Of a stretch of DNA of 64,000 nt, positions 14,545-45,958 are shown one piece after another. Both the position numbers and the translations under genes were made by a program. Positions within the stretch are counted from its first letter, which is position 1; each line of letters opens with the position of its first letter. The stretch comes from a virus (taxonomy: Duplodnaviria > Caudoviricetes), in the IMG/VR virus record IMGVR_UViG_3300028887_000100, positions 17,872 to 81,871 of that record. One strand, written 5' to 3'. Below the pieces are notes generated by a model that saw only the letters and a program-made list of their open reading frames with translations, had not been told where the DNA came from and did not search any database.

Positions 14545-15555
14545 TCATTCAGTTGTTTCTGTGGTCTCGGTAGTCTCAGTTGTCTCTGTAGTGCCGGTTG
14601 TGCCAGCATCAGTGATATTGAACTGAATTGCATCTGACTTCTTGTTAAGAATGAATGCGTCCTCGAAAGACTCCTCGTAGTAAACATACTTGCCTTCTGA
14701 CATTGCTGAAGGAGCATCAAGTCTTGAGAAGGTGTAGCTTACAGGTGTGATGACTGCAAGCGGATGAACAAGGAACATGTTAATCTGCTTTGCTCCGGGA
14801 GCTACTTCCCAACCTGTAGTAAACTTATAAGCTGTTTTCATAAGTGTTGAAGGAACACCAATGATTTCAACCTCATCAAGTCTGTTTACTCTACGGTCGA
14901 TTGCGTTAGGTCCTGAAGTGATGTCCATTGAACGTGAAATCTTATCAGCATTGCCGATGAGCTTCTTAACTTCATTGGTTACATACAGGATACGACCTGT
15001 AGGAGGTACCATTGCATTATCCATCTTCAGCATTAAGTCATCAAATACATTGAGGACATTCTGAAGAGTAAGAACTGTGGTATCAGGAGTATGAGTCTCC
15101 TGAGTACGAGGATTCTTTGTCTCAAGCCAATCTGTGTAAATCTTGGAAATGAGGTAAGCATCCATTTCGGGGAACTTCTGCTCTGTATTAAATACGTTAG
15201 TGATGTTAGCGATGGTTGCTACCATGTTGGTCTGGTCAATGTCCATAGGATGAACAAGTGTAGACCACTTTCTCTGATTCTCAAGGGTCTTGGGCTCCCA
15301 AGCGTTGTCGTAATTACGCTGTGCAAATGCTACGGTATCTCTGTCAGCATTAACACGACCGGAAGTTGAAATGCTGGGAATCTCGATAGTCTTTGCACTT
15401 GTCCAACGATATCTACCATTGTTAGGTGTGCTGTAGAGCTTACCAAAGTTGAGGACGTAAGGCCACATCTGTGATAACGCTCTTGAATACTCGGTAGCAT
15501 AATTGATGCCACCCTGTGCGGTTGTGCCATTGTTTGCGGGTGCTACATAAGGCAT
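14545..15555 (-). CDS. Major capsid protein
   Basis: 336 aa, follows the scaffold; AKTIEIP.IS.SG, PEMDAY and YYEESFEDAFIL motifs; C-terminal TTE repeats. Confidence 0.85.
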   Translation of the reverse strand: MPYVAPANNGTTAQGGINYATEYSRALSQMWPYVLNFGKLYSTPNNGRYRWTSAKTIEIPSISTSGRVNADRDTVAFAQRNYDNAWEPKTLENQRKWSTLVHPMDIDQTNMVATIANITNVFNTEQKFPEMDAYLISKIYTDWLETKNPRTQETHTPDTTVLTLQNVLNVFDDLMLKMDNAMVPPTGRILYVTNEVKKLIGNADKISRSMDITSGPNAIDRRVNRLDEVEIIGVPSTLMKTAYKFTTGWEVAPGAKQINMFLVHPLAVITPVSYTFSRLDAPSAMSEGKYVYYEESFEDAFILNKKSDAIQFNITDAGTTGTTETTETTETTETTE

Positions 15556-15583: not shown

Positions 15584-16258
15584 TTACGGCATAGGTCTAA
15601 TCGGCGTAAAGTGCATCGCATTTAAAAAGCCTCCAGTCGGGTCACCTGCGTTTACATCTTCAGCTCCGGGTGTAGAACCTACGAACTGCGGTTTGCTCTC
15701 AGAACCTTCATTAAACTGATTTAAGTCAATCTCAGTAATGAACGCGTCCTGATTGCTTTCGGTGTATGACTTCAAAAAGTCATCAGCACCAAGAATGGAG
15801 TCATTCTCCATCTTTAACTGCTTTGCAAGCATAGACTGTATGAAGTCTCTTTTAGCGGCCGTACTTGAGAACGTCTGTCCATCAGCATACCTATTAACTG
15901 CATACTTATAGGCCTGCTCCTGTAACTGCTTCTTATAAGCTTTTGAATCCTCATCATACTTAGACTGTAAAGTCTGAAGCTGTGTGGTAAGCTCGGCAAG
16001 CTTTGTAGTATCTGCGCCTGCACTCTCAAGCTGTTTCTTTAGAGTCTCCAAGTCTGTGTCGCGTGTTGAGATTGTACCTGTAAGAGTCTCAATCTCTCTT
16101 GCTTTTGACTCAAGCTCGGCATCAAACTTACTCTTGGACACATATGCGCCCTCACTCAAATCAGCAAACTTAGCATTGCCAGCTTTAGCTAATTCGGAAA
16201 ACTGTTCATAAGTCAATACGCCATTCTCTGCTTTGTCAAAAATTTCTTTGATGTTCAT
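15584..16258 (-). CDS. Capsid scaffolding protein (GP20-like)
   Basis: YVSKSKFD motif, coiled coil, precedes the major capsid gene. Confidence 0.8.
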   Translation of the reverse strand: MNIKEIFDKAENGVLTYEQFSELAKAGNAKFADLSEGAYVSKSKFDAELESKAREIETLTGTISTRDTDLETLKKQLESAGADTTKLAELTTQLQTLQSKYDEDSKAYKKQLQEQAYKYAVNRYADGQTFSSTAAKRDFIQSMLAKQLKMENDSILGADDFLKSYTESNQDAFITEIDLNQFNEGSESKPQFVGSTPGAEDVNAGDPTGGFLNAMHFTPIRPMP

Positions 16259-16701: not shown

Positions 16702-17922
16702 TCATTTCACCGAAATTTTTTTGTAACCATTTACCTGTATCTTGCCAAGCTTCATAGACAATCCACAAGCTTTGGAAAACGCGCTGTATTCTGCGGTATA
16801 TCTATTTATCTTGACTTGATATTCCTTAGCTAATTCCATGTCTCCTGCGCTTTGTGCGGCTATCTGACCATCTTTAGCCTGTCTTATCTTTGTTTCAAGC
16901 ATTCGCTGTCGCTGTGTGCATTCATACATTGTGAGATGTTTACCATTTGGAAATGTATATCCCTCTTGATTCTTCTTGAGTATTTCCTGTAACTGTTTAT
17001 CTGTGTACGTCTGACCTTCAACACCTATAACTATTGATATCGCAAAGTGCCTACAGTTCAAAGTGCCTACAGCTCTTTCAAAGCCTTGATATTCTCTGCC
17101 TTGTACATCTTTGAAGTTTTCAGCGTTCTGCATCTTCTCAAATTCAGCTTTTGAGTACTGGTGCCCTTGCATCTCTGCATGGTCAGGAGCGGGATTCATA
17201 TGTACTGAGATTTCAACACCATCAGCTCCAAACTCTTCACCGACTATATTCTGCATCTGCTGGTTTATAGCTCTCATTCCGTCTTGAAGATTTCGCCTGA
17301 CAGCTGTATCAAGTCTCTGCGCGTATGTTCTTCCACTCTCTGTATTGTAGACTACATAACGTATACCATTCTCGCATAACTGCTTTAAAGTGTTGTGCAT
17401 CGCTGTCCTGTAATCAACTCCACCAGATGCGGCCTGTACTGCTTCATCCACGATTCTTTGATATGTTCTGGCAACATTTGTTGGTATGAATCTCTTAGGA
17501 TTTTTAGGGTCTCTGACCATAAAAGCCTGTGCTTTCGCGATGTTCTTATAGCTGTCTGATGTCTGACGCGCCATAGCTTCTACGCGTCTTTTCAACACTG
17601 TATTTTCATCATATGGTATATATGACTTCTTCCTAAAATCATAGAATGGCTTTGCGCTTCTGTATGCATCTTTAGCAACAAATCTTACCAGATTCTGTAT
17701 ATCTGCAACCTGTAAAGCTGTAAGACTTGCAAGCTCTTCCATTATCTTCTTTGCATCTGCGCCTGTATTTCTTAGATTAATCAGTGTTTGGACATCAGAA
17801 GGTAGCACCTCGCCAACTTCTTTTATGCGCTGTGCTATCTTCTTGATTAACCAAGTGTTTATTCTCTGCTGTCGATTGATTATAGGCTCTATGAGTCTGT
17901 TTAATGCATCATCTGGTAACAT
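16702..17922 (-). CDS. Minor capsid protein (MuF-like, phage minor capsid 2), without a toxin extension
   Basis: LDTAVRRN, VEISVH..PAPDHA.MQG, GTLNCRH and YECTQRQR.LE motifs. Confidence 0.85.
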   Translation of the reverse strand: MLPDDALNRLIEPIINRQQRINTWLIKKIAQRIKEVGEVLPSDVQTLINLRNTGADAKKIMEELASLTALQVADIQNLVRFVAKDAYRSAKPFYDFRKKSYIPYDENTVLKRRVEAMARQTSDSYKNIAKAQAFMVRDPKNPKRFIPTNVARTYQRIVDEAVQAASGGVDYRTAMHNTLKQLCENGIRYVVYNTESGRTYAQRLDTAVRRNLQDGMRAINQQMQNIVGEEFGADGVEISVHMNPAPDHAEMQGHQYSKAEFEKMQNAENFKDVQGREYQGFERAVGTLNCRHFAISIVIGVEGQTYTDKQLQEILKKNQEGYTFPNGKHLTMYECTQRQRMLETKIRQAKDGQIAAQSAGDMELAKEYQVKINRYTAEYSAFSKACGLSMKLGKIQVNGYKKISVK

Positions 17923-17923
17923 T

Positions 17924-18148
17924 TTACTCCTCTGCGTTTGTTGTGGTCGTAGTATCGATTATAGCCTTGATACTCAGCACGGGTGTTAAAAGCTCCCAAT
18001 GCTTTACTTCGCTCTCCTTGATATCACTGGAAAGACTTTCAAAGCCTGTCGATTTCAAACTTACAATCTCAGCTCCCGTACTCATCTCATGAATATTGAC
18101 TGTTACGCTGGGTGTGGTCAGTGTTGATAAAAGGTCTCTAAGTGTCAT
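17924..18148 (-). CDS. Hypothetical protein
   Basis: Co-oriented and translationally coupled to the portal gene. Confidence 0.5.
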   Translation of the reverse strand: MTLRDLLSTLTTPSVTVNIHEMSTGAEIVSLKSTGFESLSSDIKESEVKHWELLTPVLSIKAIIDTTTTTNAEE

Positions 18149-19815
18149 GAATCGAATCCTCCTTTGTTTTTGTTGAAGTTATTATTATCCTCGTTATTGC
18201 TTCCCATAATCATGTCATTTTCTGCGCTCTGTATGTTCTCTTTGTCGATTTCCTGAAGTGCCTGCTCTGCCTGTCTCTTTGTCTCTCCAAAATACCACAT
18301 TCTGACTTCTACTTTGCTTGCAAGACCAGCATTCATGAGTGATAATCTCTTATTCAGCTCGGTATCTACATCTACCAAGATTGAATCGTCCCACTCAAAT
18401 GATGCATCATAATCTCCATCGGGTGTGATGTCGTATAAGTCACAGTATGCATTCATGATGTAAATGACATCGCGCAAAGTATCTTCCAATGAATCCTGTA
18501 TGTCTTTATTCGTCTGGAATGCTCTCTGCTTCATGGATTTAATCTCTGTTGCTGTCTTAGCTTCCATTGTAGCGTCTGAAAGACTGCCTCGTCCTAATCC
18601 AGCGACATCTTCAATTCTCATGAGTATTGCATTAAGTCCTTGTATATAAGACGAATCCCGCAACGTAGGTGCGTAGGGCTGATATGTATTGGATTCGCCC
18701 AAGTCGATAGTTCTGAAAAGTCTTGCCTGTAAGTGGTTCATGACTGTCTGTCCGCCGCCCTTGCCATCTTCTCTAAACTGCATAGCATCACGGTCAATAT
18801 CGATTGCCATCTCGCCTGCTTCATACTCCCACAGCATTCTTGAATACTGAAAATCTGCATCTTTGATGAGGTCTTTTACTCTGCTGTATCCAGATACACC
18901 AAGCGGTGATGATGTATCAATCGTATTAGCTTCTGGCATTCTGAAGTATGCAAAAAGCGGTTTCTGTATATTCTTGATAGTCACTGTCTCTTTTAAGTCT
19001 TTCCATGACGATACGCTCGACAGAGGAACTTCCTGACCTAAATCCAATCCGTTTAAATCATCTTGATTTCCTTTGTTTGTCGTAGACTTGAATGCCTTGT
19101 TGATAATGGTCACTGTGTTATTCTTCCACTTGTGATATTCAAGTCTCCTGAAAATGATGTCTTTTTCTATCTGAGTCTGTACAAAAGCGGCCTCTGTAAT
19201 CTGTCCACTTGCGTCAAAAGCTAACGGGAAAAAGCTGTCTGCCTGTATGAAGTCAAATTCAATCTGCCAGTCAGTGTCTTTACCATCTACTTCATTAGCT
19301 ACAAGATACGGCTTGATAACAAGTCCACCCTTTGCTATGCCATACTCTAACTGCTTTCTAAGCTGTTTCTTTAGCTTCTTGTATTGCTCGTTGAGATATT
19401 CAGCTCTATCAGTAGGACCAATAGCTCTGTCCTCTGTAATTGTCTTAGGCTCTAAGCTCGGCATGATATTGCCATACTCATCAGGCTCAGGCTCTTTGTA
19501 TTTAGGATTAGGTCTTTCGACTTCTTCAGTAGGAGTGGTAATCTCGCTTTCAAACTCAAGCAAAGCTGTCCTTGCCTTCTCGCTTGCTATCATTGCAGGT
19601 AAGCCAAGCGATGCAATCCTCACAGGGTCCTGCGGAGTAGGTTCTTTAAGCCATGGAGCCTGATTCTTGTACATGTCAGCCCAAAGCTGTATAGCGTGTT
19701 CCATCTGTGATGACATAATAGGTGTTACGTGTAAAGTCTGTTCGATTGTCCTTGCTCCTATCATCTTCTTCAATATCTCCTTTAATTTTGATATTATACT
19801 TGACCAAAATGCCAT
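18145..19815 (-). CDS. Portal protein (A118/SPP1-type)
   Basis: 556 aa; PLFAYFRMPEAN.ID..SPLGVS and FEWDDSI motifs. Confidence 0.9.
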   Translation of the reverse strand: MAFWSSIISKLKEILKKMIGARTIEQTLHVTPIMSSQMEHAIQLWADMYKNQAPWLKEPTPQDPVRIASLGLPAMIASEKARTALLEFESEITTPTEEVERPNPKYKEPEPDEYGNIMPSLEPKTITEDRAIGPTDRAEYLNEQYKKLKKQLRKQLEYGIAKGGLVIKPYLVANEVDGKDTDWQIEFDFIQADSFFPLAFDASGQITEAAFVQTQIEKDIIFRRLEYHKWKNNTVTIINKAFKSTTNKGNQDDLNGLDLGQEVPLSSVSSWKDLKETVTIKNIQKPLFAYFRMPEANTIDTSSPLGVSGYSRVKDLIKDADFQYSRMLWEYEAGEMAIDIDRDAMQFREDGKGGGQTVMNHLQARLFRTIDLGESNTYQPYAPTLRDSSYIQGLNAILMRIEDVAGLGRGSLSDATMEAKTATEIKSMKQRAFQTNKDIQDSLEDTLRDVIYIMNAYCDLYDITPDGDYDASFEWDDSILVDVDTELNKRLSLMNAGLASKVEVRMWYFGETKRQAEQALQEIDKENIQSAENDMIMGSNNEDNNNFNKNKGGFDS

Positions 19816-19825
19816 TTACTTCACC

Positions 19826-20722
19826 TCATTTTTTGCGCTCTTTGCGGTCTGATTTTGACTCTATTGTAAGTGGTACCATGTATTCAAGCTCTCCATTTGT
19901 TGACATCTGTCCCCACGTATCAATTGGTCGTAACTGCATACTTGATACTTTTGGCTCTCCACCATGCTGTGAACCCGTAGCTCCATCTTTACCATATGCA
20001 AAATTCTCAGCTATCTTTTTATCTGGTGTATATGATGTAAACACATCATCCGAAACAAGTTTTTGACCAGATGTTCCTCTATAAACTGTTATTGGCGTAT
20101 ATAACCAAGTCTTATAATCCATAGGTTTTTCATTTTTATCCAAACCAGTTTTATAATTGTGATATGCCACATTAAGTGATGCATTAAGTACGCCTTTATT
20201 ATAAAACATTTGCTCGGCAATACGAGGCTTATATGATGAGTCTCCGTTTCTAAACCAGCCTGAAATATGACTTGCTTTAATTGAGTCCGTAATTTTATCA
20301 ATCGCATCATCCATCGACATTTCATGTAGATTTTTGATTTCTTCTTGACGCTTCATCTCGTACCACAACTGCCGTATGGAATCCAGACCCTCATTTGCAC
20401 CAAACTGCTTAAACAATCTATTAGATAGATTTTTATCTATAAACTCATCCACATCATCAGCATCTTTTAGTGGTCCTAATGACTTAATATCAAAATTATC
20501 AATCATGGAAGCATTTTTATCTTCGGCTCGTTTTTGTATCTCAGCTTGTTTCTTGCTTGCATCTATCTGCCGTTGCTTTTCGTCATTCTCTTTTTTGACC
20601 TCATTCTGACGCGCTGTAAAATTCTTGATTGCATCGTCTTTCGATTGACCTTCCATAATGGGTATATGCTGTCCATTAATTGTTATCCAAGCTTTCACTC
20701 CTGCCATGTATCTTCTCCTCAA
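19826..20722 (-). CDS. Leader-bearing effector with a C-terminal ADP-ribosyltransferase domain
   Basis: WITINGQHIPI leader; VYRG, TSYT and GELEYMV match the R-S-E catalytic pattern. Confidence 0.7.
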   Translation of the reverse strand: MRRRYMAGVKAWITINGQHIPIMEGQSKDDAIKNFTARQNEVKKENDEKQRQIDASKKQAEIQKRAEDKNASMIDNFDIKSLGPLKDADDVDEFIDKNLSNRLFKQFGANEGLDSIRQLWYEMKRQEEIKNLHEMSMDDAIDKITDSIKASHISGWFRNGDSSYKPRIAEQMFYNKGVLNASLNVAYHNYKTGLDKNEKPMDYKTWLYTPITVYRGTSGQKLVSDDVFTSYTPDKKIAENFAYGKDGATGSQHGGEPKVSSMQLRPIDTWGQMSTNGELEYMVPLTIESKSDRKERKK

Positions 20723-21353
20723 GCTCTTTTATCAAGTCATCATCTGTCCAATACTGCGCTCTTACCGGCTCTTTACGTTTTCCACCACTGCCACCGCCTA
20801 AAAGATAGTCTACATGGTCAACAAGATTCGGCATTATATTTAAGGCACAGCAATCACGCTGAAACTCTTTTAAATACTGTCTGAATGCCCAATCATCATT
20901 GACTCCCTTTTCCCAATACTGACGGTAAACAGGATTTCCAATGATGTATTTATTTACCCACTCAGCACACCAACGTGCCCACATGTTGGGTATTCTGATG
21001 CAAGGAAAACTAAACCACATACGCGCTCTCGGCACTGCTCCTCTCTTGTTTGCTTCATCACCATCGTAAAGCTTACTTGAGAATCCACACACAAGTCCGT
21101 TATCATACCACTCTGTCCTCTGCTTAAAATCTTTACAGATGAGAACATCATCTTGCAAATGCCAAGTGCCTCCGATATCGTTTGGACAGCTTGCAAATGC
21201 GCTCATACAAGCCCGCAAGTTGCCTTCTCCCTTACTGTCATTATACACTGTAATGTCATCTTTTGCAATACCTTGTGCCAACATTGATGGAATTAAATAT
21301 TGCTCTACATACCACAGCCTTTTCGGATATGTGTGTATCATGTATTTTGCCAT
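20676..21353 (-). CDS. GT-A fold glycosyltransferase-like protein
   Basis: WHLQDDV DxD-like motif; PNLVDH. Confidence 0.6.
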   Translation of the reverse strand: MAKYMIHTYPKRLWYVEQYLIPSMLAQGIAKDDITVYNDSKGEGNLRACMSAFASCPNDIGGTWHLQDDVLICKDFKQRTEWYDNGLVCGFSSKLYDGDEANKRGAVPRARMWFSFPCIRIPNMWARWCAEWVNKYIIGNPVYRQYWEKGVNDDWAFRQYLKEFQRDCCALNIMPNLVDHVDYLLGGGSGGKRKEPVRAQYWTDDDLIKELEEKIHGRSESLDNN

Positions 21354-22868
21354 TTACTTTCTCCTGTCTATCTCTGTCTGACTGCCTTTCCGCAACCAGT
21401 TATAGTAATACATCAAAGCATCAAATTCCACCACTCTCAATCGCTTTGAAAACATCTGCCTATGAAACTGCACATCACTCTTGGAACGTACATTTCCAAA
21501 TCTTGAATCTCCGATGCTTGTGCGTTTCCAAGCTTTATTCCATGTCGCTATCCAATACCCACCAGTTGGTAATTGTGGTCTTGCATACAGCCAATCTTTG
21601 AAAATAAAGCTGAAGCATAGAATATCTGGCTCGTTCTCTTCTCTCAGCTTTCGGTCAAGTTCTGTCAATACATATTCATGTATCCACCAGTCATCGTCAT
21701 CCATGAAGAGTATGTAATCGCCTTTAGCTTCTTCAATACCTCTATTTCTCGTTGGTCCATCACAGTGATTTTCAACTGTAAACACTTTGTCGGTGTATTC
21801 TCTGGCTATGCTTTCAGTGTTGTCCGTACAACTGTCACATACGATTATCAACTCGAAATCGCGAAAAATCTGCATTTTTATGCTTTTCAACGCTTTTCGG
21901 ATGTGGTTTTCAGCGTTAAAAGCTGGAATTATGATGCTGAATCTTGGCTGGTATATACGCTTTGCAAGTGCTTTTATACCCTCTTGGAATTGATGTCTTT
22001 CGTGTCTTATAGACTGTCGGTAACCATCAAAATCTGACTTACATGTCTCATAATGCTTCAGCACTTCCCGAATCTTCTCACATATTGCTGGCAAGTTCTT
22101 GCTGTCTCTGTCAAATTTGTATTCCTCTGGTATGTTCACATCGTCTCGATATTTGGCACTACCTTCTCTGTCTGTGATTATACAACAACCTCTGGACGCT
22201 GATTCTCTTGGCATTCTATCTTTGCCGGGATGCTCACCAAAGTCAATATACAGCTTGCTACTGTCCATCAGACTTATAATCTGTGTCTGTGTCAAGTTGC
22301 ATATTGGCATAAATGTCACATCAGGCATTCGTGATATTATCTGCTCCGTAAAATCCATACCCTTTTTAGGATTATACAGTACAATATCCGAACGCTCTGT
22401 GACGCTCATATTTGACAAATAAGCTGGGTTTATATAATCACCTGTATAAATTATCTGCTTCGCATCAATACCGCTCTTTATGAGAAAATCTGACGCATAA
22501 AATGACTGTGTGAGATGCAAAATCCTATTGTATTCTTTCGGAACTGCATCTCTGCCAGTCCACTTCTTGTAGTTATCTACACTTTCCCAGAAAATAATGC
22601 TTCGATTGTTCTTGAATCGCTCTATCTTCTTGGCCCAGATTTCTGGAAATATCAGAACTGCATCACTGTCTGGACTGTCTGTAACGATGTAATTACACCC
22701 ATATGCTTTAGTATATCGCTCTGGCTGTGGATTGTTCAACTGCTTTGCGATATACCACATTTTTGCACATATATCGGCTTGCTGATTCAATTCCCAGCAT
22801 AACTGATGTAAAAGCTCTATTCCACCTGTTTCGCAACGCTCTGGACATGCTACAAACACATTGACCAT
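21354..22868 (-). CDS. Two-domain glycosyltransferase (GT-B-like N-terminus + GT2 C-terminus)
   Basis: TGGIELLHQL...PGKDRMPRE in the N half; SIIIPAFNAE...CDSCTD...FMDDDD in the C half. Confidence 0.85.
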   Translation of the reverse strand: MVNVFVACPERCETGGIELLHQLCWELNQQADICAKMWYIAKQLNNPQPERYTKAYGCNYIVTDSPDSDAVLIFPEIWAKKIERFKNNRSIIFWESVDNYKKWTGRDAVPKEYNRILHLTQSFYASDFLIKSGIDAKQIIYTGDYINPAYLSNMSVTERSDIVLYNPKKGMDFTEQIISRMPDVTFMPICNLTQTQIISLMDSSKLYIDFGEHPGKDRMPRESASRGCCIITDREGSAKYRDDVNIPEEYKFDRDSKNLPAICEKIREVLKHYETCKSDFDGYRQSIRHERHQFQEGIKALAKRIYQPRFSIIIPAFNAENHIRKALKSIKMQIFRDFELIIVCDSCTDNTESIAREYTDKVFTVENHCDGPTRNRGIEEAKGDYILFMDDDDWWIHEYVLTELDRKLREENEPDILCFSFIFKDWLYARPQLPTGGYWIATWNKAWKRTSIGDSRFGNVRSKSDVQFHRQMFSKRLRVVEFDALMYYYNWLRKGSQTEIDRRK

Positions 22869-22871
22869 ATA

Positions 22872-24218
22872 TCAATTACCCTTTCTGTTAGCGTATTTCT
22901 GTAATGCATAACGCACCGCATCTATTGAATGGTTGTTTTCGTCTGGATATGCGCTTATGAAGTTGCCATCTCTGTCCTGCTCATATTCATACTGAGTAAA
23001 TTCCTTATAGGTCTCGGGACATCTTCTTGCATCGATGTAAATATGATTTAAGCCTTGCAACCACTTTATGCCATATCGTACCGAATCTGGTCCTTTGTCA
23101 GCGCCTCGAATGAATGCTCCATATGCTTTAAAGTCTGCGATTGATTTTTCCTCTGCGCTGTCGGCTATTACCAGCTCATCCTTGCGTACTTTCTTCAGGT
23201 CATTGTATAAAATATCGAATACAACCTGATTTCGCGTTTTTACTGTGTTGTACTCATCAAAGATGTATAAATCCAAGTGCTTGATATCAAAATGCATTCT
23301 GACATAGCGGAACGGGTCTCTCGCAAAACCCCAATCGATTCCATTGTATATCTCGCTGAACGTCTGCCACATCGGCACTTTTTTGTCCTCAATTCCCATG
23401 CCGTTGTAATGAGATACAAGCTTAGTCATATCCAAATCGCAAGCATTCGGAAATACATCTCCACCTGTTCCTACAGGAACTCCCATGTATTCATGCTCAT
23501 ACGCTCTCGGATTCTTCTCTTTCAGCTCGTTTGCTTCTTCAAGAAACTCTGGTCCTAACCAGCTCTTAGGCACTTGTAAATATGTGGTTCTTACTACCAG
23601 TGTAGACTTTTGAGGTCTCAGCTCATATCCTTCTACAAACTCATTAGCCCAATTATTCTTTGAGATAGGCGGGTTAAACGTTCTGAAATCCCAAAACAGC
23701 TCGCCACCACGCTTTGTAGACTGTGTTACTTTTCTAAGCTCGCGCTCGCCCGCGAATTGGTCAAGCTCCTCGAACCAGTCTATACCGATGTATCCGAATG
23801 CCGGCTTTATTGATTTTACTTTGTCCGGGTCATCAAGTCCCATGAAGTAGATTTTCTGACCTGTTGGTATGTACTCGATTGGTGTTGAATAGTTTTTAGA
23901 TATCTTAAATAAATCCTGCAATCCAAGCTGATAGATTCCCCAAACTACCTGTGGGAATATCGATGTCTGAATCGTATTGGCTATCTTTCTAAAACAGACT
24001 GCATGTATATTTGGGTATGCTGTGATTAACAGCGGTATCGCTATTCCACCAACAAATGATGACTTTGTGCTTCCTCGTCCTCCCGGAAATATGTACCTGC
24101 TATGTCGATGGTCAAGTATATCTTCTAAAACATCAAAAAAGTCAGGTATAATACAGTCACGGAGAGGGATATTAATTTGTGGCATATCTGACTGCATCCT
24201 TTCCTGTAAAATCAGCAA
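22872..24218 (-). CDS. terL: Terminase large subunit (PBSX family)
   Basis: GGRGSTKS Walker A, WFEELDQF Walker B, GIDWGF and NHSIDAVRYA nuclease motifs. Confidence 0.95.
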   Translation of the reverse strand: MLILQERMQSDMPQINIPLRDCIIPDFFDVLEDILDHRHSRYIFPGGRGSTKSSFVGGIAIPLLITAYPNIHAVCFRKIANTIQTSIFPQVVWGIYQLGLQDLFKISKNYSTPIEYIPTGQKIYFMGLDDPDKVKSIKPAFGYIGIDWFEELDQFAGERELRKVTQSTKRGGELFWDFRTFNPPISKNNWANEFVEGYELRPQKSTLVVRTTYLQVPKSWLGPEFLEEANELKEKNPRAYEHEYMGVPVGTGGDVFPNACDLDMTKLVSHYNGMGIEDKKVPMWQTFSEIYNGIDWGFARDPFRYVRMHFDIKHLDLYIFDEYNTVKTRNQVVFDILYNDLKKVRKDELVIADSAEEKSIADFKAYGAFIRGADKGPDSVRYGIKWLQGLNHIYIDARRCPETYKEFTQYEYEQDRDGNFISAYPDENNHSIDAVRYALQKYANRKGN

Positions 24219-24238
24219 AAAGCAGGTTGGTAGCCTGC

Positions 24239-25399
24239 TTAGATGTTATACTGTTTTTTAAGTTTTAAAACGTCCTGCATATAATTATCAATCTGCTTTT
24301 CGTTAAGCGTGAACTCGCCAGATGACTCGCTGAAGCGTTTCCATGATGCTTGGTCTTTTATGCTTAGACCTTTTCCAGCTTTGCTCTCTGCTGTGAGTCT
24401 CAGATTTCTGCCAGCATTGTCATATACTTTAAGTGAATCAACAACACCAGACAGCTTTTGTACCGCGTCATATGCTTTTCTATGTGCGGCTGTCAGCTGA
24501 TGCAATGGAACAAGTCTTTTCTGCTTCACGAATCTATCCAAGCTGTTTTGTCTTACCGTTTTGAAATCGCTGTAAACAAATGACATCTCGGTCTTGTAAC
24601 CAGCTTTCTTTGCGGTATCTAAAAGCTTATAAACTCCACTGCCTGTAGCTGTACCGTCATACAGTGTCGGATAGTTGTTCTGTAAAGCTGTGTTGTATAT
24701 CTGCTTTGCAAGTGCTGAAGATTCCTCATGATAATACGCTGTGAGTCTTTCATCCATCTCTTTTCCATCAGCTTTAGCAAGTGCTTTTTTGATATCATCA
24801 GGGTCAATCAGCATCGGGTTTTTATTCTGTGAGTAAAAATCTCCAATATTCTTACTGAATACACCCTTACCAGATGCGGCACCACCACCCGTAAACATAG
24901 CGACTTTTTCCTCACCCGGCGCATACGGCTTATGGTCTTTGAAATAATTTTCCATAATCTGTCTGTGTACTTCAGCACGTTCAGGAGATAAATTACCATT
25001 TTTATCAAGATGGTCAGCAAATGATTGTTCACCAGCGTTTCCTGCTTCTGATGTGTCTATCTTATCAACTTCCTTGCCCTTAAACATCATCTTGCCATTG
25101 CTCATTGTGACTTTATCGCCTTTTGCCAATTCATCTCTGTACTTAGACTCATTATTAAGCTTTTCCGCGTCTGTTTTGTTCTTAGCTATATCTTTATCTT
25201 TCTTATGTGCATCTAAGCTGTTTCCTGTCATTTTAGAGCTATTGGAAGCTGTATTTGACTTGTTGCTCTGCGTAGACTTCTTTCCTGTTGCTTCCGCTAC
25301 TCTGTTTTTGATGTCTGCGTCAGTATCACCAGCATATATCGGAATATGTTTTCCACCCTTTAGTGTTATCCATCTTTCGGGTTCGCGCTCTTTTGCCAT
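24239..25399 (-). CDS. Leader-bearing effector with a zeta-toxin family P-loop kinase
   Basis: WITLKGGKHIPI leader; FTGGGAASGKG, IDPDDIK, LYDGT and KVYDN motifs. Confidence 0.8.
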   Translation of the reverse strand: MAKEREPERWITLKGGKHIPIYAGDTDADIKNRVAEATGKKSTQSNKSNTASNSSKMTGNSLDAHKKDKDIAKNKTDAEKLNNESKYRDELAKGDKVTMSNGKMMFKGKEVDKIDTSEAGNAGEQSFADHLDKNGNLSPERAEVHRQIMENYFKDHKPYAPGEEKVAMFTGGGAASGKGVFSKNIGDFYSQNKNPMLIDPDDIKKALAKADGKEMDERLTAYYHEESSALAKQIYNTALQNNYPTLYDGTATGSGVYKLLDTAKKAGYKTEMSFVYSDFKTVRQNSLDRFVKQKRLVPLHQLTAAHRKAYDAVQKLSGVVDSLKVYDNAGRNLRLTAESKAGKGLSIKDQASWKRFSESSGEFTLNEKQIDNYMQDVLKLKKQYNI

Positions 25400-25411
25400 G
25401 ATGCTCTCCTC

Positions 25412-25678
25412 TCACATTAATCCATATTGTATCGCTGAAGCTGTCTCATATAATGCCAGATTGTAATACTTAAACTCTGCATCATTCTTGAACGCTGACC
25501 GTTCACGTGCCTGTTTCTTTGATGTGACATCACTATTGGCCATATTGCTTATCTGTGTCAATCTGTCAGCATCTACCTGCTTCGCGTCTGCATCAGTAAA
25601 CTCTGCGCCTTTGGCTTTACTCTTGTAATAAGCTATCTCTTTATCATTCAGTTTCGCCATTGCTCTTCCTCCAATCAA
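25412..25678 (-). CDS. Small helical protein, candidate zeta antitoxin
   Basis: About 82-88 aa, directly upstream of the zeta-like gene. Confidence 0.4.
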   Translation of the reverse strand: MIGGRAMAKLNDKEIAYYKSKAKGAEFTDADAKQVDADRLTQISNMANSDVTSKKQARERSAFKNDAEFKYYNLALYETASAIQYGLM

Positions 25679-26303
25679 GCTTTATTGTCATGACGTTATC
25701 AGGTACACCCTTAACTCTGTTGTCTATGTCTACTGTCCTCTTTGCAAGCTCCTGACCAGCTTTTATTCTATCTGCTAATGTCGCATCAAGTCCAAATTGG
25801 TCTTTGATTTCGCCATTCATCACCTTGGTCAAAAACTTCATAACGTCTGCGGCTGTCGCGATTGCATGTTCCTCTTTCTTGGCATTGAGTCGGTCGATTT
25901 CCTTTTTCACCTTCTCCAGTGTCAACAAACGCGATGCCTGCTTACACGCTGTTGTTTCCTTATACCCTGCTCTTATGGCTGACTGCTGTCCATTGCTTGT
26001 TTCTGCATAATAGATACAGAATAATTTCTGCTGTTGGTTAAGTACATCTGGACAGTTTCTTTTCTGCTTGAATCCTTTTTGTCTCTGTACTCTTGGTTTC
26101 TTTTCTTTCTTTGGTTCTTCTGTTTTCTTTTCTGTTTTTGCTTTCTTTTCTTTCTGCTTTTTTTCTTCTTCCTGTTTGTATGTATCTTGTAATAGTTTTA
26201 ATGTACTTCTATGTGTTGTTTTGGAGCTTTTCGATGTGCTTTTCTTTTTTATGGATTTTCCCGCCGATTTTTTTGTTTTCTTCTTCTCAGTGTCTTTATC
26301 CAT
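25644..26303 (-). CDS. terS: Terminase small subunit
   Basis: QQKLFCIYY...QSAIRAGY...ASRLL, EVMKFLT-like and IKAGQELAKR motifs; K-rich N-terminal extension. Confidence 0.9.
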   Translation of the reverse strand: MDKDTEKKKTKKSAGKSIKKKSTSKSSKTTHRSTLKLLQDTYKQEEEKKQKEKKAKTEKKTEEPKKEKKPRVQRQKGFKQKRNCPDVLNQQQKLFCIYYAETSNGQQSAIRAGYKETTACKQASRLLTLEKVKKEIDRLNAKKEEHAIATAADVMKFLTKVMNGEIKDQFGLDATLADRIKAGQELAKRTVDIDNRVKGVPDNVMTIKLDWRKSNGETE

Positions 26304-26321
26304 TGTATCAGCTCCTTTTTA

Positions 26322-26537
26322 TTAATACATCATGTCTAAACAGCTTGCTGTTGCCTGTGGCATATATGCAGGTATATTTCTTTTACTGAATCCGTCATAA
26401 TGCTTTTTTAACAGGCTGTCTACATCTGGTTGCTTAAAATAGGTATCTGTCTCTGCATCAGTATAATTACCGCACTGCTTAAAATATGTCTTTACCGACT
26501 GTGTATACTCCTGTAATGTCATCTTTAAACCCTCCAA
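26322..26537 (-). CDS. Small protein, candidate immunity protein for 26538-27338
   Basis: Abuts the effector's stop codon. Confidence 0.4.
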   Translation of the reverse strand: MEGLKMTLQEYTQSVKTYFKQCGNYTDAETDTYFKQPDVDSLLKKHYDGFSKRNIPAYMPQATASCLDMMY

Positions 26538-27338
26538 CTATTTTATGAATTTATCTCTATACTTCATTGCATCATCATATCCATTTTCACCCGTAAAGGG
26601 CTTATTATTATTCTTAAACTCTTCAAGGTCTGTATTCTTTACTTTACCAATACCAACATATCGGTAAAATACTACATCTTCACGACCACATCCGCTTTCT
26701 TTCCATCCTTTTGGCGCATATTTCTCATTGAACTTTGTATAACTTACAGGCTCAAATCCACAGCTTACATAAAATTCATGATTACCATCAAAACTATCAA
26801 GCTTTCTGCCTCCAAGTTTTACTGCTTCAGCCATCAGCTCTCTGCCTTTCATTTTATCATTGGTATTCTTGCATAGGCTGATTATATCACCATTTCTGTC
26901 TACTGCTACTGTAGAACCACCTTTACTGACATAACATGCACAACCACGTGCTTTATAATCCTCTATTGTATGTGTATCATCTACTCTCCACTTATCAGCA
27001 ATAGGACGGCTCTCTTTAGCAGTTACTAATGATTTATTAAATGATGCTGGGTTAACTGTCTGTAAAGCTTTTGTGGTATTTTCTGATTGCTTCGCATTAT
27101 CTGCTTCTTTCTGATTTCTTGCTATCTGCTGGTCTTTCTCATCTTCATTTTTGGCGATGCTCTTCTGGTCATCTGACTGCTTGGTCGCTGTCTTTTTATC
27201 AACTGTTTTGTCTGATACTGTCTTTGTCTTGCTCTGCTTTCCTACAAAGCTCTTTACTGCATCAGCTTTAGACTGACCTTTCATGATAGGGACTCTGTTA
27301 CCGTTTACAGTTATCCACTGTTCTATCTCTTTAGACAT
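26538..27338 (-). CDS. Leader-bearing effector with a GNAT-like C-terminal domain
   Basis: WITVNGNRVPI leader; GDIISL...GRELMAEAVKLGGRKLDSFD...FYVSCGF pattern. Confidence 0.55.
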   Translation of the reverse strand: MSKEIEQWITVNGNRVPIMKGQSKADAVKSFVGKQSKTKTVSDKTVDKKTATKQSDDQKSIAKNEDEKDQQIARNQKEADNAKQSENTTKALQTVNPASFNKSLVTAKESRPIADKWRVDDTHTIEDYKARGCACYVSKGGSTVAVDRNGDIISLCKNTNDKMKGRELMAEAVKLGGRKLDSFDGNHEFYVSCGFEPVSYTKFNEKYAPKGWKESGCGREDVVFYRYVGIGKVKNTDLEEFKNNNKPFTGENGYDDAMKYRDKFIK

Positions 27339-27339
27339 A

Positions 27340-27525
27340 TCATTCTACCTCTTCCAAATCTTCTTCTCCTACTGCGTAGACTTCATCCAAATCTGACATC
27401 ACTCCCCACGCGTCAAGCTCTCTGTCATATCCACGTACTTCATAAATCTTACCTTTTTCAAAAGCTCCATTAGTCTCTCCGATGTACTTAGCTTTACTTC
27501 CTTTGTGTAACATTTTCATCCTCAC
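27340..27525 (-). CDS. Small SH3-like protein, candidate immunity protein
   Basis: KAKYIGET...KGKIYEV pattern, which I recognise from small genes that follow MuF toxin tips. Confidence 0.55.
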   Translation of the reverse strand: MRMKMLHKGSKAKYIGETNGAFEKGKIYEVRGYDRELDAWGVMSDLDEVYAVGEEDLEEVE

Positions 27526-28070
27526 TTTCTGTCCTCAAGATTCTTCTCATGAATCTTGATAAATGCTTCACGAACATATCCATCTTTACCCTGTACCCAA
27601 TGTACTTCTCTATCTAACACTTTAGAGCCGTTTGTTATCTTAGCGAATCCAGCACAATGTTGCCAATCTTCGGGATTTTTACCGCTCTCTGGATATCTCT
27701 TTGCGTACTTCTCTGCATCTCTGAATACTTTGGAACAACCTTTACCCGCAAATACATAAGCACCTGTAATACTTGTGCCTTCTTTAAATCTAAACCGCTC
27801 TTTTGTCTTGAGATGCAAGACGTCAGAAAACTTGTTAGCATCTTTGGCAGGTATATCGCTGAGACGTAAACGCTTAGGCGGTTCTTGTTTATTTCTCTTA
27901 TCTGCTTCAGCTTTACTCTTTGACATCTGACTGTTTTTTCTTCTGTCATCTTCCATCATCTTGGTAAATCTGCCAACAGCGTCATCTTTTGACTCGCCCT
28001 CATATATTGGTACATGATGTCCGTTGACTGTTATCCACTCTGTTATGTTTTTCATGTCATCGTTCCTCAA
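27522..28070 (-). CDS. Leader-bearing effector with a MuF-type toxin tip domain
   Basis: WITVNGHHVPI leader; FKEGT.I...VFAGKG...W...G...REVHW pattern. Confidence 0.55.
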   Translation of the reverse strand: MRNDDMKNITEWITVNGHHVPIYEGESKDDAVGRFTKMMEDDRRKNSQMSKSKAEADKRNKQEPPKRLRLSDIPAKDANKFSDVLHLKTKERFRFKEGTSITGAYVFAGKGCSKVFRDAEKYAKRYPESGKNPEDWQHCAGFAKITNGSKVLDREVHWVQGKDGYVREAFIKIHEKNLEDRK

Positions 28071-28389: not shown

Positions 28390-28442
28390 ATCTCACCTCC
28401 TGCAAAAACCTATACTCATCTACAATTCATTATATAACAAAA

Positions 28443-28598
28443 TCAAGAAAAAGTAAACAACTTTTTTTGTCGCTTACTCTTTTTTATTTTCTCCCAACAT
28501 ATCTTGCCATATCCTCGCTGTCTATATTCAAGCTTTTTCAACTTTTTACCACATCGCTTACAGACTTTATACAGCTCCACTCTTGATATCTCTATCAT
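28443..28598 (-). CDS. Small zinc-finger protein (DUF6011-like)
   Basis: Translated by hand: CKRCGKKL...RGYGKIC. Confidence 0.6.
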   Translation of the reverse strand: MIEISRVELYKVCKRCGKKLKKLEYRQRGYGKICWEKIKKSKRQKKLFTFS

Positions 28599-43903: not shown

Positions 43904-44755
43904 TTATCCTTTCTTGAATTTATCGCTTATTATTTTTGGCACTGCATGGTCCCAATCTATGAGATGATGAATCCTCTTGTGTCCACAACCCATCTCTGAT
44001 ATTTTAACACATGAGGGATTTCCCATAACAGTGTAAAAAGACTTCACATATGTGCCCATCTGTAAGTAGGCGTCTGTTAAACCACCGCTGTTCTGCTGTG
44101 TGTCGTGCTGGTTTAATGTCATATCTGAGATTGTAAAAAACAGCTTGCCTCTACTTCCCAATGATACATAAGCGTTGACATCTTCATTAATTCTACCATA
44201 AAAATCAAAAGGTCTGTCAACTTTACAAAAAAAGCTGTTCATTGCTTTTCTCAGAATCTTTTCTTTAAACAGCTTACAGCCACTACCACCAATGAAATCT
44301 CCTGTCTGTCCAAATGCCACTGTCGTTGCTCCACTCGTTTCAAGGAAATCTATTGTCTCATCTATCACCGAATCTAAATCTGTACAGTAGACTGTGGCAA
44401 GCTTATCTCCGTCCCACATTCGACTTCTGAAGATTGTATAATCATCATCAAGCTCTAAAAAATATGTCAGGCCAAGCTTCTTAGCTATCTCAAAACAGCT
44501 GTTACGTGCAAACAATACAATATTTCGATTATCAACTAAATCCATTGTATCACAGCTCTTGGCTTTCTTCTTTTTGTCAAACATAATGACATTTTCAGCA
44601 CCAAATCGCTGTCGATATAAATCTGCCTGCTTATCCTCATTATCGATGATATAATAGATTCTATTTGTATTTCCGCATCGCTTTAATGTATCTGTCGTTA
44701 TCACATTATCAGCTCTGCCATGTGTCAGTATGAAAATGGCAAAATCAGCTCTCAT
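43904..44755 (-). CDS. TAGT/GREB1-like glycosyltransferase
   Basis: FILTHGRAD, RN..FEIA, ELDDDY, GRINEDV and KSFYTVM motifs. Confidence 0.75.
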   Translation of the reverse strand: MRADFAIFILTHGRADNVITTDTLKRCGNTNRIYYIIDNEDKQADLYRQRFGAENVIMFDKKKKAKSCDTMDLVDNRNIVLFARNSCFEIAKKLGLTYFLELDDDYTIFRSRMWDGDKLATVYCTDLDSVIDETIDFLETSGATTVAFGQTGDFIGGSGCKLFKEKILRKAMNSFFCKVDRPFDFYGRINEDVNAYVSLGSRGKLFFTISDMTLNQHDTQQNSGGLTDAYLQMGTYVKSFYTVMGNPSCVKISEMGCGHKRIHHLIDWDHAVPKIISDKFKKG

Positions 44756-45140
44756 CTTTTGTCCTTCTTCCTGTCTGGTCCATAATCTGCTTAATGTTTT
44801 TACTCAGCTTTACATACCCATTCACAATAGCATCATTGATATCAATTATCACCAACGCTGATTCTTCCATCAATCTCTGCACTTCAGGTTCTGCATGGGC
44901 ATAAAAGTCTGCTATCTTTGCATAATTGAACACTATATGCCTTGTTGCTCCAAGCTTCAGAAAGTCTTTAATTTCGTCTGGAATATCGGACTTGTTGATA
45001 TTCTGCATAAGCTTTTTATACTGTGCTAAATCACAAAGCTCATGCATCTTAGGAGCTATTGCACTTGGTAAATACTGAGGTGGTAATACTTTTGCTGTGT
45101 ATTTGGTATCAACTTCTTTTTTGATTTTAAACAATGGCAT
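44745..45140 (-). CDS. Small partner of the TAGT-like gene
   Basis: ATRHIVFNYAKIADFYA...IIDINDAIVNGY. Confidence 0.65.
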   Translation of the reverse strand: MPLFKIKKEVDTKYTAKVLPPQYLPSAIAPKMHELCDLAQYKKLMQNINKSDIPDEIKDFLKLGATRHIVFNYAKIADFYAHAEPEVQRLMEESALVIIDINDAIVNGYVKLSKNIKQIMDQTGRRTKDES

Positions 45141-45958
45141 TAAACTATCCTCCTGTATTCTGGACTGATTATCTTAGGTGTAAAACTTGCATAAGGTATT
45201 GTAGGTCTGTCCAATGCAACAGGTCTCTGACCTAATAGAACAAGATGCTGGTAATACTCTGACTTACTCATATTACCATAACAATCTGTTGTGGTGTGAG
45301 GGTCTCGGCAACATACTTGTAATCCAAATGGACATATCGACATCTTACCAATTTTGTTGTTCTGCAATATAATGTCCATATCTTCAAGTATGCTTGTTCT
45401 CAAAACGTCTGGCATTCTTTCAACATCATAGATAAACATATTTCCATATCTTGTAGAATACTTATCCGCACAAGTGCTGTTAACCCCAATATAAAAGCTT
45501 GAATTTGGTGGTCCAACAAGAACCAAATCATCACTCGAATTTAACAGATTAACATACATGTCCATCATTCTATCAAAGTCAAATTTTCTTGTTGATTTAA
45601 CCTTGTTCTCAGCACTTACATATCGAATCTGAAAATACTGTATATCATCAAAAAGATAACAAACGTATTTCACACCAAGCTGAAGTGCAAAGTCCTGAAC
45701 TGCTAATCTCGAATATGTACACACTTTATGAGTTTTAGCATAAACACCAATATCATCTATTTTGTCGATATAATCAGCTTTATCAAACACCAAAAGGTTA
45801 TCTTTGTATGTGGTCTTATACTCTTCAAGCTTAGGGTCATCAGTACCTACAACTATGTAGATAGGATATTTTACATCATGCTCTTTAAGCTGTTGTAACG
45901 TCATAATGTTATCAGGCTTACCATAGCTTGCTATGAAATAAGCAAAGTTATTTTTCAT
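45140..45958 (-). CDS. Second TAGT/GREB1-like glycosyltransferase (divergent paralogue)
   Basis: FIASYGKPD, LLVFDK, YLFDDI and SILEDM motifs. Confidence 0.7.
   Translation of the reverse strand: MKNNFAYFIASYGKPDNIMTLQQLKEHDVKYPIYIVVGTDDPKLEEYKTTYKDNLLVFDKADYIDKIDDIGVYAKTHKVCTYSRLAVQDFALQLGVKYVCYLFDDIQYFQIRYVSAENKVKSTRKFDFDRMMDMYVNLLNSSDDLVLVGPPNSSFYIGVNSTCADKYSTRYGNMFIYDVERMPDVLRTSILEDMDIILQNNKIGKMSICPFGLQVCCRDPHTTTDCYGNMSKSEYYQHLVLLGQRPVALDRPTIPYASFTPKIISPEYRRIV

Follow-up and report, generated by a model that had tools for sequence, protein, structure and literature searches.

What do four phage genes have in common that lie scattered among packaging genes, encode unrelated C-terminal domains and all open with the same peptide? 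We addressed this question in a 64,000-nucleotide stretch of viral DNA ("the window"), part of the 81,871-bp virus record IMGVR_UViG_3300028887_000100, which CheckV rated complete. Four minus-strand genes of the window, numbered 1 to 4 in Table 1, open with one common N-terminal module, and an initial annotation, made from the sequence alone, had proposed that this leader is a portable tag for capsid loading or injection. Based on sequence comparison we favour, with slightly better than even confidence, the reading in which these genes are members of a large, so far undescribed group of polymorphic phage effectors whose module would load an exchangeable cargo into the head for delivery. We are far more confident that they represent a new family of polymorphic phage proteins defined by their carrier.

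The N-terminal module and its family

All four proteins begin M-x5-8-W-I-T-x-(N/K)-G-x-H/R-(I/V)-P-I, with an invariant tryptophan at residue 7-10. The leader, WITxNGxH(I/V)PI(F/Y)EGESKxDA, is followed by an optional K-rich spacer of variable length and by a helix motif, NEDxKxKQIAxNKxEAD (motif 2). A profile of related leaders matched exactly the four reading frames singled out in the initial annotation (E 4e-15 to 2.5e-18; next-best frame E 0.4), and the whole record holds exactly four copies of the module, all within the window. The open reading frames (ORFs) lie where they had been placed, but the starts of genes 1 and 4 were moved inward to ATGs at 20707 and 28055, which are preceded by a ribosome-binding site (RBS) and lie five codons inside the listed TTG ORFs. 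Genes 2 and 3 have RBS-supported ATG starts at 25399 and 27338.

As the initial annotation had suggested, leaders were then collected into a profile, searched for, and tabulated with their cargo and gene neighbourhood. The profile comprised 56 leaders taken from 32 IMG/VR loci and was run exhaustively against 1.84 billion cluster representatives, of which 1231 matched at E≤0.001 and 266 at E≤1e-10. Of the 1231 clusters the best 150 were inspected; the position of the module was read in 167 proteins, cargo clusters were defined among 150 representatives, and the consensus and Pfam content come from 143. The position was strictly N-terminal, the module beginning at residue 1 in 161 of the 167 proteins with the tryptophan at position 7-12 (mode 9). 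In some proteins the core motif was also found internally or at the C terminus.

The consensus of the 143 cluster representatives reads MAEREVKQWITVNGKHVPIFEGESKxDAVKR and then NEDxKxKQIAKNKxEADKLN, with tryptophan and proline invariant. Motif 2 is the majority consensus in this set and comes either straight after the leader or after a K/S/T-rich spacer; lysine makes up 19% of the spacers. As the family-wide consensus places motif 2 after the leader with or without a spacer, motif 2 belongs to the one module. The spacer and second motif reported from the window alone were thereby found to be a property of the family (NEDxKxKQIAxNKxEADxLN), and the leader length of about 30 amino acids (aa) was revised to 55-80 aa for a module of hairpin, helix, spacer and second motif.

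AlphaFold2 models of genes 1 and 4 placed a beta-hairpin at residues 4-18, followed by one long helix (residues 23-70 in gene 1 and 23-54 in gene 4). For gene 1 the first 60 residues reached a predicted local distance difference test (pLDDT) score of 91-97, and for gene 4 the first 30 residues scored about 80-85. No model in Pfam, PHROGs or NCBIfam covers the module and no description of it was found in the papers searched, which agrees with the expectation that the leader is not an already characterised domain. A DUF7194 match on gene 1 was discarded as noise; it scored 13 bits against a cut-off of 27, was missing from the other three leaders and was present in control genomes. The module thus appears to be undescribed, unrelated in sequence to known head-loading signals, and folded according to the models.

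Outside the viral loci, a first scan of genome contigs (query A2) gave no match, and a megablast search of the region against GenBank phages likewise found none. A DNA pattern scan detected true copies in five contigs of Clostridia metagenome-assembled genomes (MAGs), assigned to Christensenellaceae, Acutalibacteraceae, Candidatus Neoclostridium and two unclassified Clostridia; a sixth match, in a Saprospiraceae MAG, was chance-like. Three Clostridia MAG contigs (L043, L045 and L047) carry an apparent sub-family in which the motif stands 25-60 residues into the ORF after an acidic GKGE(D/N)xD stretch, as in P0021 and P0147.

Exchangeable cargo and partner ORFs

The C-terminal parts of the four window proteins, one cargo each, are mutually unrelated, as had been noticed at the outset. 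The same diversity was seen throughout the family, with 34 cargo clusters among 54 non-redundant proteins of the viral loci and at least 76 among the 150 representatives. Pfam identified three zeta toxins, three ADPrib_exo_Tox domains, one ART-PolyVal and four MSSS SH3 domains in the 143 representatives, and little else. One member, P0168, has two cargoes behind one leader.

The zeta kinase predicted for gene 2 was verified (Zeta_toxin, PF06414, E 4.8e-24), and its translation contains the Walker A sequence GGGAASGKG. For gene 1 an ADP-ribosyltransferase (ART) is plausible, although the evidence is only suggestive: six relatives keep R210, G211, E273 and E275 (YRG...ExE) without change but vary in the Ser motif, and the relative P0157 matched Pfam ART (PF01129) below threshold (E 0.06). 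The gene 1 cargo itself had no Pfam or PDB profile match, its C terminus was modelled by AlphaFold2 with a pLDDT below 50, a Foldseek search of the model against BFVD and PDB gave nothing at E≤0.001, and no longer relatives of the cargo were found. The GNAT-like assignment of gene 3 found no support; its cargo matched only phrog_2563, of unknown function (E 1.8e-7), and no Pfam, NCBIfam or ESM Atlas family. The C-terminal tip of gene 4 was modelled with a pLDDT of 75-91. It had no PDB profile match in the family search and no named ESM Atlas family, and Foldseek against PDB together with a wide VIA-align comparison returned only weak NTF2-like and coiled-coil rows (Z at most 4.1) and no clear fold match.

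Small ORFs adjoin three of the four genes, as first described: one after gene 4, one after gene 3 and one before gene 2. The ORF after gene 4 is conserved behind the same cargo in the related loci L001-L003, and a homologue of the 82-aa ORF before gene 2 always lies directly upstream of a zeta-type leader gene in L003, L005, L019 and L020. No family match was obtained in PHROG or Pfam for this ORF or for the one after gene 3, nor in NCBIfam for the former.

Exchange of these units was seen between the window and the near-identical locus L002. Their DNA is 93% identical over the end of the upstream ORF and the whole module (leader, spacer and motif 2). At about position 27100 (gene 3 codon 80) identity drops to about 41%, and beyond this point L002 has another cargo and another small ORF downstream. 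The ORF after gene 3 (26322-26537) is thus swapped along with the cargo in L002; in L001 it is kept with the gene 3 cargo. A breakpoint exactly at the module end would be expected if the conserved 5' ends were only a DNA-level recombination handle and the peptide had no function. This is contradicted by the paralogous leaders, which are about 58% identical in DNA and use the same codon at only 35-50% of their identical residues. Synonymous divergence of paralogues with a retained peptide means that selection acts at the protein level. Moreover, tryptophan and proline remain invariant across 143 clusters whose overall identity does not exceed 50%, and the distance from the start to the tryptophan is fixed. 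We consider a handle without a functional peptide to be hardly credible.

A constant carrier, with a putative toxin and its partner moving together, is by its sequence pattern the behaviour of a polymorphic toxin. The same layout of conserved N terminus, variable C terminus, small adjacent ORF and cassette swapping would also suit bacteriocin-like toxins that are released at lysis, the module then helping the toxin to bind a receptor on neighbouring cells or to be taken up by them, and the partner ORFs protecting kin. Jamet et al. define polymorphic toxin families by their N-terminal domain and discuss a role of MuF toxins in competition (PMC5576092). We regard such a role as improbable for the present family, as the module, with about 55 residues and neither hydrophobic nor receptor-binding features, would be small for a role in uptake and translocation, and its presence in scaffold/protease proteins (see below) would be left unexplained. 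The phage also has its own replisome; no search for integrase genes was made, and hence none for a lysogen that would benefit.

Links to the capsid and to the packaging genes

Residues 65-167 of gene 4, its tip, share 42% identity with the tip at the C terminus of P0169 (E 4.6e-11 database-wide). This 487-aa Phage_min_cap2 protein belongs to an unrelated phage, in which its gene comes directly after an SPP1-type portal gene, and the match supports the earlier description as a MuF-type tip. The small ORF after gene 4 is in turn homologous to the 51-aa ORF that directly follows this MuF-tip fusion in L038 (34% identity, E 1e-6 pairwise). From the homology of both tip and partner ORF we conclude that one cassette has two alternative carriers, the WIT module and a minor capsid protein of MuF type; an argument of this kind was used for MuF toxins by Jamet et al. 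(PMC5576092). Of the initial proposal, a portable N-terminal module, its place at the start of varied standalone genes bound up with the packaging and head genes, and its use in place of MuF fusion are well supported, but the module is not confined to N termini.

The core motif was found internally in two proteins of the DUF2213/Pa193_gp24 family, for which the PHROG name is head maturation protease. It stands right after the protease-like domain in P0018 and occurs twice in P0159, and both genes sit between the MuF and the cement/capsid genes of E217-like myophages. Cryo-EM of the virion shows Pa193 gp24 attached to the inner face of the capsid (PMC11456595), and density beneath the hexons that is still unassigned has been reported for Pa193. 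In the E217-like myophage locus L033 (12943-15480), the interval from the scaffold/protease gene to the cement/capsid genes holds three ORFs whose last residues are the core motif, K-W-I-T-T-K-x-G-K-K-I-P-I-Y-E-stop, so that the tag is C-terminal. The 2440-aa protein P0030 (L034:10001-17323), encoded downstream of a terminase-like gene, has six variant motifs (WITVKGSAVFIPxGxDKGxAIKxHF) that are 190-940 residues apart, and looks like a string of leader-cargo modules. Judged by their sequences, the module is apparently usable at either end of a protein or internally, and P0030 and P0168 link the family to the polyvalent proteins (PMC5512222).

A position right after a protease-like domain, the two copies in P0159 and the six copies between the modules of P0030 might also be expected of a recognition or cleavage signal for a head maturation protease, which would mark proteins to be processed and the joints of multi-module proteins. 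The phages of the window clade have a separate Phage_scaffold protein and no recognisable protease from portal to capsid, and the motif is nearly invariant in them all the same; in addition, a folded hairpin at the extreme N terminus would be an odd cleavage site. We therefore hold a cleavage signal to be very improbable.

In the window itself the leader genes are part of the packaging and head gene block (Table 1), which is co-oriented throughout on the minus strand. In the direction of transcription the order is a 110-aa ORF, gene 4, a 61-aa ORF, gene 3, a 71-aa ORF and terS; then an 82-88-aa ORF, gene 2, terL, two glycosyltransferase genes, gene 1 and the portal gene; and finally a 74-aa ORF, the Phage_min_cap2 (MuF-type) gene, a 107-aa ORF, the scaffold and the major capsid protein (MCP). 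Genes 4 and 3 thus precede terS, gene 2 lies between terS and terL, and gene 1 directly precedes the portal, at the positions originally assigned to them; the MuF-type gene was also correctly described as having no toxin tip. By eye the conserved C terminus of the MuF-type proteins (V-x-G-Y-x-K-I) resembled the hairpin, but the leader profile did not pick it up and the likeness was discarded. In the 32 IMG/VR loci, which are relatives from cattle and sheep gut, each phage has 1-6 leader genes, without exception on the strand that also encodes terS, terL and portal. The three slots they occupy recur as well: ahead of terS, between terS and terL, and in the interval from terL and the glycosyltransferase genes to the portal.

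Table 1. Leader genes and neighbouring packaging and head genes, in the direction of transcription (window coordinates)
Feature	Position	Strand	Description
Gene 4, 177 aa	27522-28055	-	Module residues 1-55 (27891-28055); C-terminal tip residues ~65-167; leader E 4e-18
Small partner ORF after gene 4, up to 61 aa	27340-27525	-	Candidate immunity/neutralising protein
Gene 3, 266 aa	26538-27338	-	Module residues 1-80 (27099-27338): leader, K/T/S spacer, motif 2; leader E 2.5e-18
Small ORF after gene 3, 66-71 aa	26322-26537	-	Candidate partner
Terminase small subunit (terS)	25644-26303	-	Terminase_2, E 8.4e-24, residues 88-197
Small ORF upstream of gene 2, 82 aa from RBS-preceded ATG 25660	25412-25660	-	Candidate antitoxin
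Gene 2, 386 aa	24239-25399	-	Module residues 1-82 (25154-25399); zeta-toxin kinase domain residues 151-332; leader E 3.8e-15
Terminase large subunit (terL)	22872-24218	-	Terminase_3, E 2.3e-31; Terminase_3C, E 4.4e-16
Gene 1, 293 aa	19826-20707	-	Module residues 1-58 (20534-20707), then helical middle domain and C-terminal ART-like YRG...ExE; leader E 1.7e-17
Portal protein	18145-19815	-	SPP1_portal, E 3.8e-9; candidate docking partner
MuF-type minor capsid protein, no toxin tip	16702-17922	-	Phage_min_cap2, E 3.5e-55, residues 4-382 of 406; candidate docking partner
Scaffold	15584-16258	-	Phage_scaffold, E 2e-17; candidate docking partner
Major capsid protein	14545-15555	-	70-78% conserved in related loci; candidate docking partner

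A 14-pair terminator-like hairpin overlapping a promoter-like site (TTTACT-17-TATAAT) was observed at 28429-28482, just upstream of the 110-aa ORF, and is likely the start of the late packaging and head transcription unit. As this pair stands just upstream of the block, the leader genes are probably co-transcribed with the late genes.

Several features of the module would also suit an adaptor or oligomerisation domain with a cytoplasmic role in the producing cell, where it might bring different enzymes to one host or phage target or to DNA, with nothing being packaged. The hairpin and long amphipathic helix resemble a generic interaction or coiled-coil element, the lysine-rich spacers could bind nucleic acid, the motif is found at either end or inside proteins, and one member fuses the module to a terS oligomerisation core. 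Such an adaptor leaves unexplained the constant location among terS, terL and portal, the cassette of cargo and partner that is in common with a MuF-type minor capsid protein, and the motif in scaffold/protease proteins and head-module ORFs of unrelated myophages. We consider it unlikely, although it deserves more weight than release as a bacteriocin or a role in cleavage. The fusion to terS was seen in P0091 of another phage, where leader and motif 2 are joined to the oligomerisation core (39.5% identity to terS residues 126-211) and the DNA-binding part is missing. The terS protein of the window has an N-terminal K/S/T/E-rich extension of about 85 aa (26049-26303) that resembles the leader spacers.

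The stretch is present in several bovine gut metagenome runs, one of them possibly its source, and represents a cattle-gut phage. Among cultured phages, those of Blautia and Clostridium have the nearest terminases, which are about 45% identical. Genes for RecA, a family A DNA polymerase (PolA) with 3'-5' exonuclease, a DnaB-type helicase, a Toprim primase and an SNF2 helicase were found at 34145-58466. The MCP ends in a Thr/Glu repeat, TTGTTETTETTETTETTE (14545-14600), and a 225-aa ORF and a 504-aa protein with a GT2 domain, both conserved across the clade, lie between terL and portal (20676-22868); the MCP tail and these two genes may point to glycosylation of the virion. Two TET-associated glycosyltransferase (TAGT) genes, at 43904-44755 (E 2.5e-38) and 45140-45958 (E 2.9e-13), suggest glycosylated, hypermodified cytosines in the phage DNA.

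A candidate route into the phage head

The proteins consist of a hairpin, WITxNGxH(I/V)PI, a helix that starts from EGESKxDA, an optional Lys-rich spacer with the motif 2 helix, and an exchangeable cargo. From this architecture and the gene context we infer docking, encapsidation, injection, toxicity and immunity as follows. The leader genes would be expressed together with the late packaging and head genes, and the hairpin would then dock on the assembling procapsid, with the portal, the MuF-type protein, the scaffold or the inner capsid face as candidate partners. The cargo would be enclosed in the head and leave with the DNA at the next infection, in the manner of SPP1 gp7 and MuF toxins, T4 Alt and internal proteins, and P1 DarB. 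In the producing cell the partner ORFs would hold toxic cargo inert. A precedent exists in P1, where the N-terminal 30 residues of DarB suffice for loading a reporter into capsids (PMC9024508).

Both N-terminal head-loading signals and phage-borne polymorphic toxins are already known; it is the present module that is undescribed. MuF polymorphic toxins have a MuF/Phage_min_cap2 N-terminal domain, a variable C-terminal toxin and a downstream immunity ORF (PMC5576092). The window proteins resemble them in the constant N terminus, the variable C terminus, the small adjacent ORF, the location beside portal and terminase genes, and one tip-plus-ORF cassette in common. They differ in that the carrier is a hairpin-helix of about 55 aa and that several carriers occur per genome, beside a MuF gene without a tip. 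No MuF or Phage_min_cap2 match (PF04233, PF06152, MuF3/4) was obtained in the four proteins even at E≤10. The MuF toxins have been reported only from temperate phages (PMC5576092).

Like the capsid targeting sequences of T4 and P1, the module is a short N-terminal element common to unrelated cargo; in T4 and P1 the transfer to head-loaded, injected cargo has been demonstrated, whereas here the arrangement is known from sequence. The T4 signal comprises about 10 N-terminal residues and is removed by the prohead protease at an (L/I)xE site. In contrast, the present module is unrelated in sequence to these signals, is longer (55-80 aa) and predicted to be folded, has in the window clade no recognisable prohead protease that could remove it, and has a motif that also occurs internally and C-terminally.

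Polyvalent proteins (PMC5512222) likewise have diverse conflict-type enzyme domains, are encoded among head genes and are predicted to be injected, and ART-PolyVal occurs in one member of our family. They carry 2-15 conflict domains per polypeptide, which fits P0168 and P0030 but not the four window proteins with their one cargo each. Unlike polyvalent proteins, the leader proteins are mostly standalone genes with a single cargo, defined by their common N-terminal module; a term search of Iyer et al. 2017 (PMC5512222) did not find such a module there. The capsid-interior family of Pa193 gp24 and DUF2213 is comparable in that the core motif was read in its members P0018 and P0159, the inner-surface location being taken from Pa193 gp24. 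It differs in that the four window proteins have no DUF2213 domain.

Several observations weigh against head loading of effectors. About nine in ten cargoes match no recognisable family, so that "effector" is established for few of them, and the profile and structure searches that were run named no fold for the cargo of genes 1, 3 and 4. Most of the neighbourhood evidence was gathered within a single clade, whose phages are relatives with 65-100% identity in terL. A tblastn search of two leaders against 50,697 GenBank phage records gave no close copy in a cultured phage. None of the ORFs between portal and MCP in the window matched a prohead protease family, so T4-style processing would not apply there; with a separate scaffold and no recognisable protease, removal of the tag as in T4 is unlikely in the window clade. 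Finally, the occurrence of the module at the N terminus, inside proteins and at the C terminus would fit a general element for protein-protein contact or oligomerisation equally well.

The varied position of the motif also allows a broader form of head loading, to which we give somewhat less than even odds. The WIT hairpin would then be a position-independent address label for the procapsid interior, used by scaffold/protease proteins as well as by swappable cargo in unrelated siphophage and myophage lineages of gut Clostridia. Encapsulins provide a parallel: varied proteins carry a short peptide at one or the other terminus and are thereby directed into a shell with the HK97 fold. The parallel is an analogy only; the encapsulin peptides are unrelated to the module in sequence, and binding of the module to the capsid protein is hypothetical. 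If the address label holds true, the hairpin would be to phages what cargo-loading peptides are to encapsulins, and proteins of choice could be packed into heads with a tag that already exists.

Even if the module is not a loading tag, it is a very widespread and strongly conserved phage module without a family assignment. If it is a head-loading tag, it would be a second, MuF-independent carrier for phage-delivered toxins and host-modifying enzymes, as well as a compact tag, predicted to be folded, for the capsids of phages without a T4-style protease. In that case more than 1000 cargo families of gut and rumen phages, most of them unknown, would become candidates for injected effectors or counter-defence proteins.

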